Shown: positions 3,301 through 53,795 of the stretch, piece by piece
Layout of the letters: each line of letters opens with the position of its first letter
Numbering within the stretch: position 1 is the first letter of the stretch
Origin: Escherichia coli
GTDB lineage: Bacteria; Pseudomonadota; Gammaproteobacteria; Enterobacterales; Enterobacteriaceae
Strand: one strand, 5' to 3'
Assembly: GCF_050920415.1 (NCBI RefSeq)
Contig: NZ_CP169309.1
Length of the DNA: 64,000 bases
Notes under the pieces: generated by a model
Databases searched by the model: none
Seen by the model: the letters and a program-made list of their open reading frames with translations, nothing else
What the model was told of the DNA's origin: nothing
Translations under genes and position numbers: made by a program

Positions 3301-4788
3301 TTAAATCACCTCTTCGATAACCCACACGCTGACGCTGCCGCCGTTGCAAAAGAAGGTCGCTTCGCCGTTTTCGTCGGTTACTACACTTTCTTGCCGGTTC
3401 CCCAGAAAATCACGCCAGGTTTTATTGCCGTAATTCTCTCCTAAATGAATGGTTTTTTCGCCATCATCTCCGTTCGACATGACCACCACGCAGCCGGGAT
3501 ATTCGTCGGTGCCACTGCGGCTAAAGGCAATGCAGTTCGGATGGTCGAAAAATAACGTCTGTACACCGTGGGCGAAACGCTGACGGGCGAGAATTAATTC
3601 ATCAAGTTGTTCGATTATTGGCATATCTATCGGATAGGTTTGCCCGTCACCACCGACATCTTCGTAATGTGCACCGTAGAGATCCGGATAGAACACCGAA
3701 GGAACGCCATTTTCCCGCAACAAAATTAGGGCGTACGCCAGCGGTTTAAACCACGGTTCGACCGGCGCTTCGAGGGCTTGCAACGGTTGGGTGTCGTGGT
3801 TGGCAACGAGGGTTACGGCGTGAAAAGGATCGGCTTCCACAAGCGTCCCAGTGAAAATCTGCGTCATGTCGTAGTCGCGTCCCATGCGCGATGCTTCATG
3901 GAATTTCATCTGCAGCGGCGCATCGAACAGCATGGTTTTGCCTTCCACCTGATCAATATACGTTTGCAGCTTATCAACTTCATGCGACCAGTATTCCGCC
4001 ACAATAAACAGCGGCTTTGGCGCAACTTCCTGTACGTGTTCGATCCACTCTTTATAAAACCACGCCGGAATATGTTTGACCGCATCAAGACGAAAACCGT
4101 CGCATTGCGTTTGTTCCATCACCCAGCGCGCCCAGTATTTAATCTCTTCCGTCACGGCATGATTGCGAAAATCGATATTCTCGCCCATCAGGTAATCGAA
4201 ATTACCGAGTTCATCATCAACCTGATCGTTCCAGCCTTCGCCGGTGTAGTCGTTAACAATTTTAAAAATGCCATCTTCATCAGGATTTTCGATATGGTCG
4301 ATACCGCTAAAACATTTGAAATCCCAGATAAACTGTGAGTATTGCCCGGCACGGGCGGGGAAGGTGTAACGCGTCCAGCCTTCGCATTCAATGATTTCTT
4401 CATCAATTTGCGTACGGTCGTCAGCATTAACGCGCTGCACGCGAATAGCTTCTTTTTCATCCGCGCCCATTTTGTGATTGACTACCACGTCCAGCAGCAC
4501 CGCAATGTCATTACGTTTCAGGGCGTCAATGGCGGCCAGCAGTTGTGCTTTATCGCCATATTTAGTAGGGATGCTGCCTTTCTGATCAAACTCGCCTAAA
4601 TCAAATAAATCATAGGAGTCGTAGCCGACCGAATACCCGCCCGATGCGCCTTTATAGGCGGGCGGCAACCAGACCATATTGATACCAATATCATTAAAAC
4701 CGTCGGCGCGCTCGGCCAGTTCAGGCCAGAGCTTACCGCCTTCCGGGTAATACCAGTGAAAACATTGTAACAGCGTGGGATTACGCAT
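3301..4788 (-). CDS. amyA: Cytoplasmic alpha-amylase
   Basis: 495 aa ORF with glycoside hydrolase family 13 motifs; no signal peptide. Confidence 0.9.
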
Positions 4789-4865
4789 TCTTCGACTCCA
4801 TTCAAGGGGAACATTAGAAGCGTAGCCGTAATCGGATTATTCGCGAGCCATCGGCTCGTTAAGAT

Positions 4866-18698: not shown

Positions 18699-18785
18699 GC
18701 CCGGATGGTGGAATCGGTAGACACAAGGGATTTAAAATCCCTCGGCGTTCGCGCTGTGCGGGTTCAAGTCCCGCTCCGGGTACCA
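18699..18785 (+). tRNA. leuZ: tRNA-Leu (TAA)
   Basis: 87 nt GCCCGGATGGTGGAATCGG...GGGTACCA, anticodon TAA; 3' two thirds lie in the prophage att repeat. Confidence 0.95.
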
Positions 18786-18855
18786 TGGGAAAGATAAGAA
18801 TAAAATCAAAGCAATAAGCAGTGTCGTGAAACCACCTTCGGGTGGTTTTTTTGTA
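18731..18855. repeat. attL: 125-bp direct repeat (3' 55 nt of tRNA-Leu plus the tRNA-operon terminator)
   Basis: Identical to 53671..53795. Confidence 0.9.
18829..18853 (+). terminator. glyW-cysT-leuZ operon terminator
   Basis: Hairpin ACCACC-TTCG-GGTGGT followed by TTTTTTT; duplicated at 53769..53793 inside attR. Confidence 0.7.
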
Positions 18856-50607: not shown

Positions 50608-50811
50608 TTAGCTGTTAGCCAAAGCGTCTTTTAACATCGCCACAAGGTTTACTTCAGGCTTTTCCATTTTGGCGCGTTTGGGGCGGATAATAATTCGACC
50701 GTCAGCCAACATCTTTTTGCATGTATTAAGAGGGATACCTGTTATCTCTGCATATTTCTGCAGGGATACATAGGGGGCATTCACATTGATATTGATGGTT
50801 ATACCTGACAT
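50608..50811 (-). CDS. Small HTH DNA-binding protein (excisionase/CII-like candidate)
   Basis: 67 aa; VSLQKYAEITGIPLNTCKKML resembles an HTH; second gene of the early operon. Confidence 0.55.
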   Translation of the reverse strand: MSGITININVNAPYVSLQKYAEITGIPLNTCKKMLADGRIIIRPKRAKMEKPEVNLVAMLKDALANS

Positions 50812-51034: not shown

Positions 51035-51094
51035 AGTGGTATATTGTGATCATCTAATAGCTCGTGAAATCATTTTGGTATCAAAAAAGATACC
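51009..51094. promoter_or_regulatory. Genetic-switch region with GGTATC operator half-sites
   Basis: GGTAT at 51011, 51038 and palindrome GGTATC-AAAAAA-GATACC at 51077..51094; AT-rich divergent promoter region. Confidence 0.4.
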
Positions 51095-51109
51095 TGTCAA
51101 GGTTTTTGT

Positions 51110-51514
51110 ATGAAAAATGATATTGGTCAGCGGTTGCGTGAGGAAAGGGAAAGATTGGGACTTAGTCAAGTTGCCATGAGCGACATTGGTGGAGTCAAAA
51201 AGCTAACTCAGCTTAGATATGAGAAAGGAGATAGCTTTCCTGATGCTGCGTATTTGGCAGCGCTGTCTCGTTTTGGCCTTGATGTTCAGTATGTTGTGTT
51301 GGGAATTCACTCACCTGAAACTTATAACGATGATGAGCAGGAGTTGATTACTCGCTTTCGAGCAGCTTCGTTAGATGTGAAAAACGCGGTGATTGGGGCT
51401 TTAAAAGGTGCGATCAGTGAAAAGGAAACTCAGCCATCAGGACGTGAGTTAAATATTTCTGGTGGTAATAACCGTATTGCTGGTCGTGACTATAACGAAA
51501 CTAAGGGTAGGTGA
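51110..51514 (+). CDS. Immunity repressor CI (XRE-family HTH)
   Basis: 134 aa; LREERERLGLSQVAMSDIGGVKKLTQLRYEKGDSFP is a typical XRE HTH; transcribed toward int. Confidence 0.8.
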   Translation: MKNDIGQRLREERERLGLSQVAMSDIGGVKKLTQLRYEKGDSFPDAAYLAALSRFGLDVQYVVLGIHSPETYNDDEQELITRFRAASLDVKNAVIGALKGAISEKETQPSGRELNISGGNNRIAGRDYNETKGR

Positions 51515-51529
51515 TAGTAGGGAGGTGAC

Positions 51530-52180
51530 ATGGCCGTCAACTCAAACGGTTCAAACAATCGCGTTGCTGGGCGTGATTTTCACGAAAAGAATATTCAGAT
51601 AGAGCGATATGATGGTTCTCATACCGTCAATATCGCAATCCCTTCGAATAATGATGATGACGATCGCCCTTTGCTTAAGGCTCAGCGTAAGGAGCTAAAT
51701 AGTTTGGTTGCTGCTATTGCAGAAGCTAGCAATACTGAAGCGTTTATTATTTGGCAAAAAGTACATGCTGAGATTGGTGTAGCTGGTATTGATGATATGA
51801 CAGTAAATCAATATAAAACAGCGGAGAGTTTTCTGCATGCAATGCTTGAGCGATGTAAAGATCATGATGCCTGTAAGGCTCTTGTAAGTTTATTACTACG
51901 TAACAGTGAAGACTGTGGACTTCGACAAAAACTTCTGCGGTATTGCCATATCAATTTCGGTACAGGACGTTTAAACGATCTTACTCGTTCTCAGTTACAG
52001 TCTGCATTGTCGTGGTTAGAGCAACAATCGGCATCAAGCCACACAGAGAGTTCGACCTTACCAGAAGTCCGACTTCGTGCTTCAGAATTAATCCGACTTT
52101 ATCCAAAAGAAATAATATTCTTTATCTGCGTAGGGGGTTTGGTAGGCGGTGTCATTTCTAGGGTGCTTTTTAATTTGTAA
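51530..52180 (+). CDS. Tail-anchored membrane protein of unknown function (immunity-region moron)
   Basis: 216 aa with good RBS (GGAGG) and a single C-terminal TM helix; N-terminus repeats a motif from the CI C-terminus. Confidence 0.55.
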   Translation: MAVNSNGSNNRVAGRDFHEKNIQIERYDGSHTVNIAIPSNNDDDDRPLLKAQRKELNSLVAAIAEASNTEAFIIWQKVHAEIGVAGIDDMTVNQYKTAESFLHAMLERCKDHDACKALVSLLLRNSEDCGLRQKLLRYCHINFGTGRLNDLTRSQLQSALSWLEQQSASSHTESSTLPEVRLRASELIRLYPKEIIFFICVGGLVGGVISRVLFNL

Positions 52181-52209
52181 TCTTACTTGAGCTAAATTGA
52201 GGTAATGAT

Positions 52210-52557
52210 ATGAAAGTAAAAAAGGTTCAACTATTAGTTACTTTTTTATCTATGTTTTCTTTTTCCGCCGTCGCAATGCCTTTTAAAACTATTGAACGTG
52301 AGAGTTTCAATGGGGTATGGCCATTTAATACTGATGAGGTTCAATTACAGTGTCTTGATGGTAATCCTTATGTGATGAATTTTGACGATAATAAGTTATA
52401 TGCACTTACAGGTTTGGCTCGAATAAAAGGTAAAACATTTGGTGCGTTACCGTTAGATAACAATAATCCATTTTGGCTAGATAATGATGCCGCCCCAGGG
52501 TTAAAAAAGAGTCTGGGGGATGTCACTAAGGCTGCATTTGATTTATGTGATAAGTAA
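52210..52557 (+). CDS. Secreted protein of unknown function (immunity-region moron)
   Basis: 115 aa with signal peptide MKVKKVQLLVTFLSMFSFSAVA; low-GC gene. Confidence 0.55.
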   Translation: MKVKKVQLLVTFLSMFSFSAVAMPFKTIERESFNGVWPFNTDEVQLQCLDGNPYVMNFDDNKLYALTGLARIKGKTFGALPLDNNNPFWLDNDAAPGLKKSLGDVTKAAFDLCDK

Positions 52558-52562
52558 CTAAA

Positions 52563-53564
52563 ATGTCGGTTCGTAAGATTCCATCAGGTAAATGGCTTTG
52601 CGAATGTTATCCCTACGGGGCATCGGGAAAACGCATTCGTAAACAGTTTGCGACAAAAAGTGAGGCGCTCTCTTATGAGCGCCGTTTAATGAATAGTAGA
52701 GTTGGAGACGAGTTTCAAGATGGTTCTGGTCCTCGTCTTTCTGAGTTGATTGCTCGTTGGTTTGAGATGTACGGTAAAACCTTGTCCTCTGGTGCAGAGC
52801 GCAAAGTCAAACTTGAGGCGATTTGTTCCAGGCTGGGAGATCCATTTGCTTCTCAGTTTGACAAAAATATGTTTGCTACTTATCGGGAAAGAAGGCTATC
52901 AGGAGAATGGAATCCCAAGGGGAAGAAAAAACTTAGTGAAGCAACCGTTAATCGCGAGCAGTCATATCTACATGCTGTTTTTGCCGAACTGAAGCGCCTT
53001 GGGGAGTGGTCTGGTGAAAACCCCCTGACTGGTATTCGCAAGTTTCGTGAGGAAGAAAAGGAACTGGCGTTTCTGTATGTAGATGAGATTGAACGCCTTC
53101 TGATTGCGTGTGATGAGTCACGGAATAAAGATTTGGGGGTTGTTGTCCGTATTGGGCTTGCGACTGGTGCTCGGTGGAGTGAAGCAGAAGGATTAAAGCA
53201 ATCTCAAGTACTGCCCGGTCGAATCACATTTGTTAAAACTAAAGGAAAGAAGAACCGCACTGTACCGATTTCACCTCAATTGCAGGCTATGCTTCCTAAA
53301 AAACGAGGAGCGCTATTTTCACCATGTTATGAGGCTTTTGACGCTGCAATTAAGAGAGCGAAGATCGAGCTTCCTGATGGGCAATTAACTCATGTGCTAC
53401 GTCACACGTTTGCCAGTCATTTTATGATGCGGGGCGGAAATATTCTTGTGTTGCAAAAAATACTGGGGCATAGCGATATAAAAATGACTATGCGTTATGC
53501 GCATTTTGCTCCAGGTCATTTAGAGGCTGCTGTTGAATTGAACCCTTTTGACAATAGAGGGTAA
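52563..53564 (+). CDS. int: Tyrosine integrase (P2 Int-like)
   Basis: 333 aa with catalytic box HVLRHTFASHFMMRGGNILVLQKILGHSDIKMTMRYAHF; adjacent to attR. Confidence 0.9.
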   Translation: MSVRKIPSGKWLCECYPYGASGKRIRKQFATKSEALSYERRLMNSRVGDEFQDGSGPRLSELIARWFEMYGKTLSSGAERKVKLEAICSRLGDPFASQFDKNMFATYRERRLSGEWNPKGKKKLSEATVNREQSYLHAVFAELKRLGEWSGENPLTGIRKFREEEKELAFLYVDEIERLLIACDESRNKDLGVVVRIGLATGARWSEAEGLKQSQVLPGRITFVKTKGKKNRTVPISPQLQAMLPKKRGALFSPCYEAFDAAIKRAKIELPDGQLTHVLRHTFASHFMMRGGNILVLQKILGHSDIKMTMRYAHFAPGHLEAAVELNPFDNRG

Positions 53565-53670: not shown

Positions 53671-53795
53671 TTTAAAATCCCTCGGCGTTCGCGCTGTGCG
53701 GGTTCAAGTCCCGCTCCGGGTACCATGGGAAAGATAAGAATAAAATCAAAGCAATAAGCAGTGTCGTGAAACCACCTTCGGGTGGTTTTTTTGTA
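53671..53795. repeat. attR: 125-bp direct repeat (partial tRNA-Leu 3' end plus terminator)
   Basis: Identical to 18731..18855. Confidence 0.9.

Follow-up and report, generated by a model that had tools for sequence, protein, structure and literature searches.

The window, that is, the whole 64-kb stretch of DNA analysed, contains a P2-like (Xuanwuvirus-type) prophage of ~35 kb integrated at leuZ. The attL/attR repeat takes in the 3′ part of tRNA-Leu(taa). The lysogenic operon of this prophage consists of four genes, cI-ORF216-ORF115-int. The features of the locus are as follows.

50608–50811, − strand: Cox-like excisionase/repressor gene, a divergent early gene, named from the annotation of the 98%-identical phage 520873
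50828–51034, − strand: Arc-like gene, a divergent early gene, named from the same annotation
51072–51100, − strand: promoter-like site TTGACA-17-CAAAAT, a consensus match only, facing the Arc-like and Cox-like genes
51110–51514, + strand: HTH (XRE-type) repressor gene, 134 aa, divergent from the Arc-like and Cox-like genes
51449–51499, + strand: repressor tail motif LNISGGNNRIAGRDYNE, residues 114–130, followed by the basic end TKGR
51530–52180, + strand: ORF216 gene, 216 aa, with motif head, Flk_N helical domain and C-terminal TM helix
51536–51586, + strand: ORF216 head motif VNSNGSNNRVAGRDFHE, residues 3–19, matching the repressor tail
51662–52054, + strand: Flk_N all-alpha core of ORF216, residues 45–175
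52109–52168, + strand: C-terminal transmembrane anchor of ORF216, residues about 194–213
52210–52557, + strand: ORF115 gene, 115 aa, a secreted DUF2511/YebY-family protein in a variable cargo slot
52563–53564, + strand: tyrosine integrase gene (phrog_1 integrase, E 1e-76), which ends the operon
53671–53795, + strand: attR, a 125-bp exact direct repeat of attL (18731–18855)

An earlier note on this DNA had placed two co-directional genes between the HTH repressor and the tyrosine integrase, and the positions and the shared orientation with cI and int are as it described; the genes are packed as an operon. The gaps between cI, ORF216, ORF115 and int are 15, 29 and 5 nt, and Shine-Dalgarno sequences precede ORF216 and ORF115. 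In several lineages the start and stop codons overlap. A consensus scan revealed no terminator-like site on the + strand, and the sole internal promoter-like match is a weak one inside ORF115. Co-transcription of ORF216 and ORF115 with the repressor is therefore plausible. Both genes are AT-rich relative to the prophage, with 41% GC for ORF216 and 35% for ORF115, the lowest in the operon, against 53% for the prophage. They are real genes, as had been supposed. ORF216 matches phrog_5825 (E 2.3e-102, residues 1–210 against 1–208 of the 208 profile positions) and ORF115 matches phrog_2950 (E 9e-40). The pair occurs at ≥95% identity in 505 of 5426 complete E. coli genomes (~9%), and RefSeq annotates both.

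The HTH protein matches PHROG transcriptional repressor families in a profile search, and its RstR/DicA-like matches in NCBIfam are below cut-off. From its position and family it is taken to be the cI-like immunity repressor of the prophage. The AlphaFold2 model shows an HTH domain and helices up to residue 105 (pLDDT 77–95), followed by a tail predicted to be disordered. The tail motif is kept among repressor homologues, in many variants.

A single stretch of ORF216 is strongly hydrophobic; residues 195–213 form its best 19-residue Kyte-Doolittle window (maximum 2.29), and AlphaFold2, a structure prediction of the kind that the earlier note had proposed, places a helix at 192–215 in a model with mean pLDDT 86.9, thereby bearing out the single C-terminal TM helix. 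The position of the anchor at the extreme C-terminus is conserved among ORF216 homologues. ORF216 is thus predicted to be a tail-anchored inner-membrane protein, so that its N-terminus and Flk_N helical domain would face the cytoplasm. The head is modelled as coil, with a pLDDT of about 54.

The earlier statement that neither protein matches a recognised family fails, since both match families of unknown function, Flk_N (PF27202) for ORF216 and DUF2511/YebY for ORF115. PF27202 is precomputed on all close ORF216 homologues; a search of the local Pfam-A copy, which PF27202 postdates, returned only noise for ORF216. The NCBIfam Flk profile NF007987 gives 58.2 bits (E 8e-16), short of the curated cut-off of 353 bits, and the alignment spans just residues 37–166 against profile positions 20–149 of 339. 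No significant sequence match for ORF216 was found in the PDB, either with the single sequence or with a profile. Foldseek against AFDB50 returned only its own family and Flk. Weak matches to Mu GemA (E ≥ 0.005) in eight family members were not relied on. No PADLOC-DB 2.0 defence profile matches ORF216 or ORF115 at E ≤ 1. The families of both proteins are named but uncharacterised.

Flk (Fluke/RflH) of Salmonella and E. coli is itself a membrane-bound brake on a molecular switch. ORF216 resembles it in having a Flk_N helical domain, a cytoplasmic orientation and a C-terminal membrane anchor. However, Flk is a chromosomal protein of about 333 aa with a long low-complexity middle, which acts on flagellar export and has no N-terminal NRxAGRDY head, whereas ORF216 is shorter, prophage-borne and paired with a repressor. 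The common domain and topology raise the question of whether ORF216 is a phage-borne Flk mimic, acting on the flagellar type III export switch to cause motility conversion or to protect against flagellotropic phages. Flk is an inhibitor of the flagellar secretion-specificity switch and may work through FlhA (PMC13344023). Against such mimicry, the equivalog score of ORF216 is far below the cut-off, and the motif shared with the repressor would be left unexplained. Moreover, Klebsiella pneumoniae prophages carry the family very often, with 754 contigs for one cluster, and Klebsiella is non-flagellate. A flagellar role was rejected on the abundance of the module in Klebsiella, and the mimic is extremely unlikely.

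ORF115 carries a Sec-type signal peptide at residues 1–22 (MKVKKVQLLVTFLSMFSFSAVA, followed by MP), as the earlier note had recognised. It matches Pfam PF10709 (DUF2511) with E 2.9e-6 over residues 28–113 (model positions 2–87 of 87) and PDB entry 7n0j (YebY) with E 0.003, at low identity but over the whole YebY fold. Like YebY of the E. coli AZY operon and MlbQ of lantibiotic immunity, both of DUF2511, it has a signal peptide and Trp37; Trp37, Cys48 and Cys113 are all placed as in YebY. Cys48 and Cys113 correspond to the two strictly conserved YebY cysteines that form a disulfide (PMC8689200). Unlike YebY, ORF115 lies outside a yobA-yebZ-yebY copper operon and has ORF216 and int as neighbours, and the presence of DUF2511 prophage cargo next to int was already noted in passing in the same paper. 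ORF115 may bind a small ligand that acts on the envelope, by analogy with MlbQ of the same family, for which binding of a lantibiotic has been proposed.

Related prophages carry members of at least 10 unrelated gene families between the Flk-like gene and int, or have no gene in this slot. In one lineage a PADLOC TIR-TM defence protein is encoded among the genes that follow the Flk-like gene. A variable cargo position is a known property of P2-like prophages, as in the P2/P4 hotspots (Rousset et al. 2022; 2026 preprint 10.64898/2026.02.27.708500). The present slot differs from the main hotspots (GpA-GpO and downstream of GpL) in its location, between the repressor partner and int; most of its cargo has no known function. 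ORF115 thus appears to be periplasmic YebY-like cargo, a true moron separate from the repressor partner.

The relation of ORF216 to the repressor is different. Flk-like queries retrieved 131 loci, and all of them have an HTH gene whose end lies immediately upstream and whose product has a tail that resembles the head of the partner. Each of the 76 unique tail/head pairs was compared with 300 composition-preserving shuffles. No more than 3 of the 300 shuffles reach the observed score in 75 of the 76 pairs, with a median z of ~10. In the 64-kb window the motif occurs only twice, with no third motif-bearing ORF, and a chance motif was rejected on this ground.

The motif comprises at least four types, NRxAGRDY, QxFHGxVGQ..GxIxN, QxFN..GxFAxRDIVN and NGxNVQIGxV. 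In the sampled loci tail and head are always of the same type, and both switch together. Two loci (L128 and L129) have a clade-B body, yet a type-A head and tail. The tail-to-head distance is <150 nt in most loci; a single recombination event can therefore move both, and part of the co-variation may reflect linkage. The DNA copies of the tail and head motifs are 46–81% identical (about 60% in most loci), and in the majority of loci no more than about half of the identical motif residues use the same codon. Recent gene conversion as the source of the similarity was rejected because the codons differ. Selection on the motif acts at the protein level. A fusion of cI and ORF216 by stop-codon readthrough was also rejected; although the two share a frame here, they are separated by three stops in a row (TGA TAG TAG), and other lineages have differing frames or overlapping genes.

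The motif is kept across gamma- and beta-proteobacterial prophages, both P2-like and Mu-like, and the match persists when the gene order or the partner body changes. Ralstonia phage YO077_2 has the two genes in convergent orientation, separated by about 860 nt, and the motifs still match. In three loci (L137–L139) the partner body is a Zn-ribbon with two TM helices, and in another (L147) it is a small helical protein with no obvious TM helix; the match holds in all of them. In YO107_2, two membrane proteins bear matching heads. A partner was found with every tail-bearing repressor examined, and no motif-headed partner was found beside the tail-less repressor homologues used as negative controls (L140–142 and L148). 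Since tail-bearing repressors have the partner and tail-less ones do not, an obligate co-occurrence among the sampled loci, ORF216 looks like part of an immunity or switch module and not an insertion independent of the repressor.

These results bear on the proposal of the earlier note that ORF216 and ORF115 are two morons. It holds for ORF115, in its variable slot of low GC content; it does not hold for ORF216, which accompanies a tail-bearing repressor in all loci examined and has a co-varying terminal motif in common with it. In its full form, with two independent morons and a shared motif that is a functionless relic of an old local duplication, the proposal would fit the AT-richness of both genes, the clear cargo behaviour of ORF115 and the fact that canonical P2 needs neither gene. 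It is very unlikely, however, as the protein motif has been preserved, with differing codons, in gamma- and beta-proteobacterial prophages of P2-like and Mu-like types, tail and partner always occur together in the sampled loci, and the match is retained in the convergent arrangement.

Known pairs of proteins with a common terminal motif provide a framework for the cI/ORF216 pair. The closest systems are BASS1–10 with Bell/NLR (Dyrka et al. 2020) and BASS11 Bab/Agp (Ibarlosa et al. 2024 preprint). Bab and Agp are encoded by adjacent E. coli prophage genes and have a common C-terminal/N-terminal motif through which an amyloid templating signal passes (bioRxiv 10.1101/2024.11.07.622273). As in the BASS pairs, neighbouring genes here share a short Gly/Asn/Gln-rich, proline-poor motif, C-terminal in the upstream product and N-terminal in the downstream one, and diverse motif families are matched within each pair. 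The present motif contains 15% Gly, 12% Asn and 0.7% Pro, a composition compatible with cross-beta fibrils or prion-like foci. As for Bab/Agp, the locus is in an E. coli prophage. The differences lie in the architecture. The present pair lacks both an NLR/STAND or TPR-GreAB-PIN sensor and a Bell/HeLo pore-forming effector; an HTH repressor bears the C-terminal motif, and a tail-anchored Flk_N protein bears the N-terminal one. The cI/ORF216 motif sequences are also absent from the BASS motif descriptions compared. Judged from sequence, the pair carries the genomic signature of amyloid-signalling pairs on a new architecture.

We propose, with a probability of roughly 45%, that ORF216 is a dedicated membrane-anchored partner of the repressor, and that homotypic pairing of the motifs couples the repressor pool to the state of the membrane. 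The Gly/Asn-rich disordered head of ORF216 and the disordered tail of the repressor bear the same motif of roughly 17 residues, and we infer that tail and head pair physically, by beta-strand stacking. We consider a multimeric, templated assembly, like that of amyloid-signalling pairs, more likely than a 1:1 complex. No 1:1 repressor-ORF216 complex was predicted by AlphaFold2; in a cI-linker-ORF216 fusion modelled with a paired alignment, no tail-head contact appeared and the motifs were disordered (pLDDT 32–41). The active repressor pool would be coupled to an inner-membrane state sensed through the Flk_N domain. With signalling in this direction, the coupling would tune or trigger the lysogeny/lysis switch, and the resulting phenotype might be SOS-independent induction, buffering of free repressor, or placement of the repressor at the site of DNA entry. 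A counterpoint is that a repressor co-transcribed with its own sequestering protein is paradoxical unless the interaction is gated.

The pairing could also act as a prion-like switch, in which clustering or activation of ORF216 at the inner membrane nucleates a cross-beta assembly that recruits and inactivates the repressor, irreversibly and independently of SOS. A membrane signal would then lead to prophage induction, or to cell death. This version of the pairing seems unlikely. If true, it would be the first amyloid-signalling motif on a transcription factor that controls the lysis-lysogeny decision.

The signal might instead run from the repressor to the membrane, as an abortive-infection or exclusion system. 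The repressor tail, or its loss from DNA on superinfection, would nucleate clustering of ORF216, a membrane effector in this reading, by way of the common motif; the TM helices, once clustered, would damage the membrane and abort the infection. The location of ORF216 in a lysogen-expressed operon, the membrane anchoring conserved even where the partner body changes, and the defence-type genes downstream of the Flk-like gene in relatives, such as TIR-TM, are consistent with this. Bab/Agp, whose motif-bearing effector acts on the membrane and kills the cell, is a precedent, and an analogy can be drawn with either this pair or lambda RexA/RexB. On the other hand, PADLOC gives no match, the single tail-anchor helix comes without a pore-forming domain, and one partner (L147) shows no obvious TM helix at all. 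The polarity is also reversed, as the membrane protein has its motif at the N-terminus, where the sensors of known systems have it. Overall, a killing role is improbable.

The lambda rexA-rexB genes are repressor-operon accessory genes that include one for an inner-membrane protein, and roles in exclusion and in modulation of the CI/Cro switch have been reported. They have no sequence or fold relation to the present genes, and the Rex proteins have no terminal motif in common with CI. The antirepressors 186 Tum, P4 epsilon and VP882 Qtip inactivate phage repressors by binding or aggregation, and Qtip drives the repressor into foci. Like them, ORF216 is proposed to be a small phage protein that controls repressor availability. 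Unlike ORF216, they are soluble proteins made only in response to a signal; their genes are not co-transcribed with that of the repressor, and they have no motif in common with it.

Direct pairing would not be needed if a third factor, such as a host protease, adaptor, chaperone or another phage protein, recognised both motifs, so that the repressor and the membrane protein would be processed or degraded together. Both motifs are terminal, disordered and cytoplasmic, which would suit engagement by an AAA+ protease or a chaperone, and the failure of AlphaFold2 to pair them fits as well. A conserved host factor would be expected to fix the motif, yet it occurs in four or more types, in some cases in related hosts, and the type of the tail always changes with that of the head. 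The window, moreover, contains no third motif-bearing ORF. We regard a third factor as quite unlikely and retain the repressor-partner pairing as the preferred reading.

The module is found in E. coli including O157:H7, and is widespread in Klebsiella, Enterobacter, Serratia, Erwinia, Gilliamella and Ralstonia, as well as in IMG/VR contigs that look Pseudomonas-like. In contrast, tblastn against phage isolates detected it only in phage 520873 and distant Ralstonia phages. A scan of genome contigs for the module gave only 6 loci. Its near absence from sequenced phage isolates explains how it has escaped study; literature searches on PF27202/Flk_N and on repressors plus amyloid returned nothing on a repressor-ORF216 module.

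P2-type prophages are classically deemed non-inducible, or induced through dedicated antirepressors. The shared, co-varying end-motif suggests a connection, not described before, of the lysogeny switch to the cell membrane. With a built-in handle matched to a membrane protein, the repressor may give this switch a new input. New lysogenic-conversion or defence genes can be sought in the cargo slot that follows the partner gene. Amyloid-like pairing, if it occurs here, would extend amyloid signalling from NLR and cell-death pairs to the transcriptional control of prophages, and the family would supply many natural, orthogonal motif pairs.

The prophage in the window is about 35 kb, lies beside yecA-tyrP and is delimited by a direct repeat whose tRNA-Leu(taa) sits downstream of glyW-cysT. 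Its right end carries four plus-strand genes, with Arc-like and Cox-like genes located leftward and divergent from them.

Features of the prophage
18731–18855 and 53671–53795, attL/attR, exact direct repeat of 125 bp, taking in the 3' part of tRNA-Leu(taa) and sequence beyond it
51110–51514, + strand, XRE-type HTH gene of 134 aa (cI, taken as the immunity repressor from position and family)
51530–52180, + strand, ORF216
52210–52557, + strand, ORF115
52563–53564, + strand, tyrosine integrase (int)

Successive genes are separated by 15, 29 and 5 nt, ORF216 is preceded by a strong Shine-Dalgarno sequence (GGGAGGTG), and a consensus scan found no terminator-like site on the plus strand of the block. 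Co-transcription of the four genes is plausible from this arrangement. The ORF coordinates agree with the earlier note, which had placed both ORFs co-directionally between the HTH gene and int. ORF216 has, as the note described, a single hydrophobic helix at its extreme C-terminus (AlphaFold2, hydropathy), and ORF115 a Sec signal peptide. Genes cI and ORF216 share a reading frame, and TGA TAG TAG, followed by GGGAGGTGAC ATG, lies between them (window 51512–51532); the three consecutive stops look like insulation against readthrough. In other lineages, overlapping stop and start codons of repressor and partner take the place of the triple stop.

The DNA here shares 98% identity with Escherichia phage 520873 (Peduoviridae, Xuanwuvirus). 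The RefSeq record of this phage (NC_049344.1, locus 3515–4555) annotates nothing at ORF216/ORF115 and shows the integrase as two parts. Since tblastn finds ORF216 and ORF115 there only when each is broken into three pieces, frameshift errors in the record are probable. Of 5426 complete E. coli genomes, 510 carry the ORF216-ORF115 DNA (505 have the pair at 95% identity or more), and O157:H7 strains are numerous among them. In O157:H7 FRIK2533 (NZ_CP015842.1, 1579–2485) the same cI-ORF216-ORF115-int block has a different left side, with no Arc-like gene and a 45-aa ORF upstream of cI, adjoining a 67-aa DNA-binding protein.

Both ORFs had been thought to match no recognised family, but each has one. 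The whole length of ORF216 is covered by phrog_5825 (E 2e-102), and precomputed annotation places its homologues in Pfam PF27202 (Flk_N). In the NCBIfam Flk model, ORF216 matches the N-terminal portion with 58 bits, the cut-off being 353. ORF216 has a Flk_N domain and Flk topology, yet its score is too low for the Flk equivalog and its architecture is not that of Flk. For ORF115 the matches are phrog_2950, Pfam DUF2511 (E 3e-6) and the YebY structure 7n0j (E 0.003), and its Trp37, Cys48 and Cys113 fall at YebY positions. YebY is periplasmic and disulfide-bonded, with the fold of the lantibiotic immunity protein MlbQ, and yebY homologues between recombinase and phage CI repressor in Enterobacteriaceae have already been remarked (PMC8689200). 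ORF115 is an ordinary DUF2511 member in a prophage context already noticed. Neither ORF matched the PADLOC defence models.

Related loci were gathered by exact-protein look-ups and by IMG/VR and genome scans. Among them, the slot between the ORF216 homologue (the Flk-like gene) and int is not conserved.

Contents of the slot
DUF2511, here and in divergent Enterobacterales prophages
acidic DUF8087 protein
BRCT plus WYL-like protein, 288–294 aa
313-aa protein with BRCT at the C-terminus
assorted secreted or membrane proteins
three-gene sets
empty

The GC content of ORF115 (35%) is the lowest in the operon; its neighbours have 41–45% and the prophage 53%. Therefore ORF115 is cargo in a variable slot, and ORF216 is not. 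The earlier description of the two as morons holds for the former and fails for the latter: in 131 of 131 loci that could be scored, the Flk-like gene begins a few bases past the HTH gene or overlaps its stop, and the two gene products have a motif in common. In Klebsiella/Enterobacter prophages (L002–L006, L016, L063 and others; e.g. L002 5647–6513) the commonest cargo is the 288–294-aa protein (phrog_8498), with an N-terminal domain similar to DNA-ligase BRCT and a WYL-like middle; the 313-aa alternative is phrog_3989. In one lineage (L098, Logan SRR23882330 contig, 3597–4862) a protein after the Flk-like gene matches PADLOC TIR-TM (E 4e-103). The genes there include a lipoprotein-like ORF and this TIR-domain protein, and lysis genes, not int, come after the module.

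The motif lies at the C-terminus of the repressor (the tail, ...LNISGGNNRIAGRDYNETKGR) and at the N-terminus of ORF216 (the head, MAVNSNGSNNRVAGRDFHEKN...), and its core has just these two matches in the 64-kb window in all six frames. The likeness is present in every related locus. Local alignment scores were compared with those of 300 composition-preserving shuffles of each tail: no more than 3 shuffles scored as high as the real sequence in 75 of the 76 unique tail/head pairs (median z about 10). There are at least four motif types (NRxAGRDY; QxFHGxVGQxxxGxIxNxxGVxFNV; QxFNxxIxxGxFAxRDIVN; NGxNVQIGxV), and tail type always agrees with head type in the loci sampled. Finer variants are matched too, as in Gilliamella (EGQIAGGNIYTT with AEQIAGRDIYNIT), and in two loci (L128, L129) a partner body of the type-B clade carries a type-A head beside a type-A tail. 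In most loci the two DNA copies share about 60% of their bases (46–81% across all loci), and the same codon encodes no more than about half of the identical residues. The similarity is therefore upheld in the protein and does not stem from recent gene conversion. The motif is 15% Gly, 12% Asn and 0.7% Pro.

Besides P2-like prophages, Mu-like ones carry the module, there next to rve transposase and DUF3102 genes. Beside tail-less repressor homologues (L140–L142, E. coli P2-like prophages; L148) neither a motif-headed nor a Flk_N partner was found. In L140–L142 (2857–3632) the stretch from repressor to int codes for a Zn-ribbon-like protein of 117 aa and a coiled-coil protein of 140 aa whose C-terminus has a TM helix; homologues of both occur elsewhere as cargo after the Flk-like gene (L086, L082). 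The partner body is replaceable with the matched head kept (L137–L139, L147), the L147 partner being a small helical protein. In L137–L139 (IMG/VR contigs; e.g. L137 282–1265) the protein after a type-B-tailed repressor is not Flk_N: its 159 aa comprise a head that matches, a CxxC..CxxC zinc ribbon and, at the C-terminus, two TM helices. Its head alone is matched by phrog_6521 ('membrane protein', moron category). A Salmonella enterica contig (DBKMCB010000005.1, 1294–3685) has four HTH repressor paralogues in tandem (126, 129, 129 and 121 aa) before one Flk-like gene; three bear the type-A tail (..VNVSGNSNRVAGRDYNEK..), and that of the fourth is degraded. In Ralstonia phage YO107_2 (ON170188.1, 1156–3208) a tail-bearing repressor is followed by two successive membrane proteins with matching heads, one of 285 aa (Flk_N-like, coiled coil, TM helix, periplasmic end), the other multi-TM, about 130 aa, beginning MNRQDFHGPVGQVAGRDIINI.

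Co-variation might reflect mere tight linkage. This objection is weakened by Ralstonia phage YO077_2 (ON170130.1, 1899–3435), in which the repressor and Flk-like genes converge (minus and plus strand respectively) with about 860 nt between the motif-coding segments, and tail and head still match with NGxNVQIGxV in common (0 of 1000 shuffles). A Zn-ribbon/TM gene lies between the two, and the Flk-like ORF ends without a TM helix, a possible sequence error ('UNVERIFIED' record). A rival view takes the motif similarity as a functionless relic; the body swaps that keep the head, the convergent match and the tail-less repressors without partner argue for function.

The AlphaFold2 model of ORF216 (60-sequence alignment, mean pLDDT 86.9) predicts coil for residues 1–44 (pLDDT 54–64), a five-helix domain for 45–175 (94–98), then a short linker and the terminal TM helix. 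A cI-(GGGGS)4-ORF216 fusion (22-row paired alignment) reproduced both folded domains; it gave no tail-head pairing, both motifs remaining strandless at pLDDT 32–41. The prediction thus gives no support to a stable 1:1 beta-augmentation complex, which is weak evidence against direct pairing, and says nothing either way on higher-order templated assembly. A rival to such pairing is a common third factor that recognises both motifs.

The arrangement is operon-like, the repressor-partner association is obligate in the loci sampled, and a co-varying, Gly/Asn-rich, proline-poor, disordered motif stands at the C-terminus of the repressor and the N-terminus of its partner, both exposed to the cytoplasm. 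Homotypic recognition between tail and head is the simplest reading. The module falls among neighbour-gene pairs with terminal motifs, a signature that was the basis for discovering bacterial amyloid-signalling motifs (Dyrka et al.); in the E. coli prophage pair Bab/Agp, experiments showed that amyloid templating passes a signal on (10.1101/2024.11.07.622273). The cI-ORF216 pair has the gene positions of these systems but not their receptor and effector domains. By position, the repressor (upstream gene, C-terminal motif) would be the 'effector' and the tail-anchored Flk_N protein (N-terminal motif) the 'receptor'. Flk itself is anchored in the membrane and brakes a molecular switch (PMC13344023). 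From these positional roles and the Flk precedent, we favour a model in which ORF216 would couple a membrane-located state to the supply of active repressor. As a rival, ORF216 may be an abortive-infection effector triggered via the repressor. Flk has the domain and topology of ORF216 but not its NRxAGRDY-type head motif. A further rival, in which ORF216 mimics Flk and acts on flagella, is unlikely given how common the family is in Klebsiella prophages. Our literature searches turned up no description of the repressor/Flk_N module or its common motif, and there is a real chance that the cI-ORF216 module is mechanistically new for phage switches.
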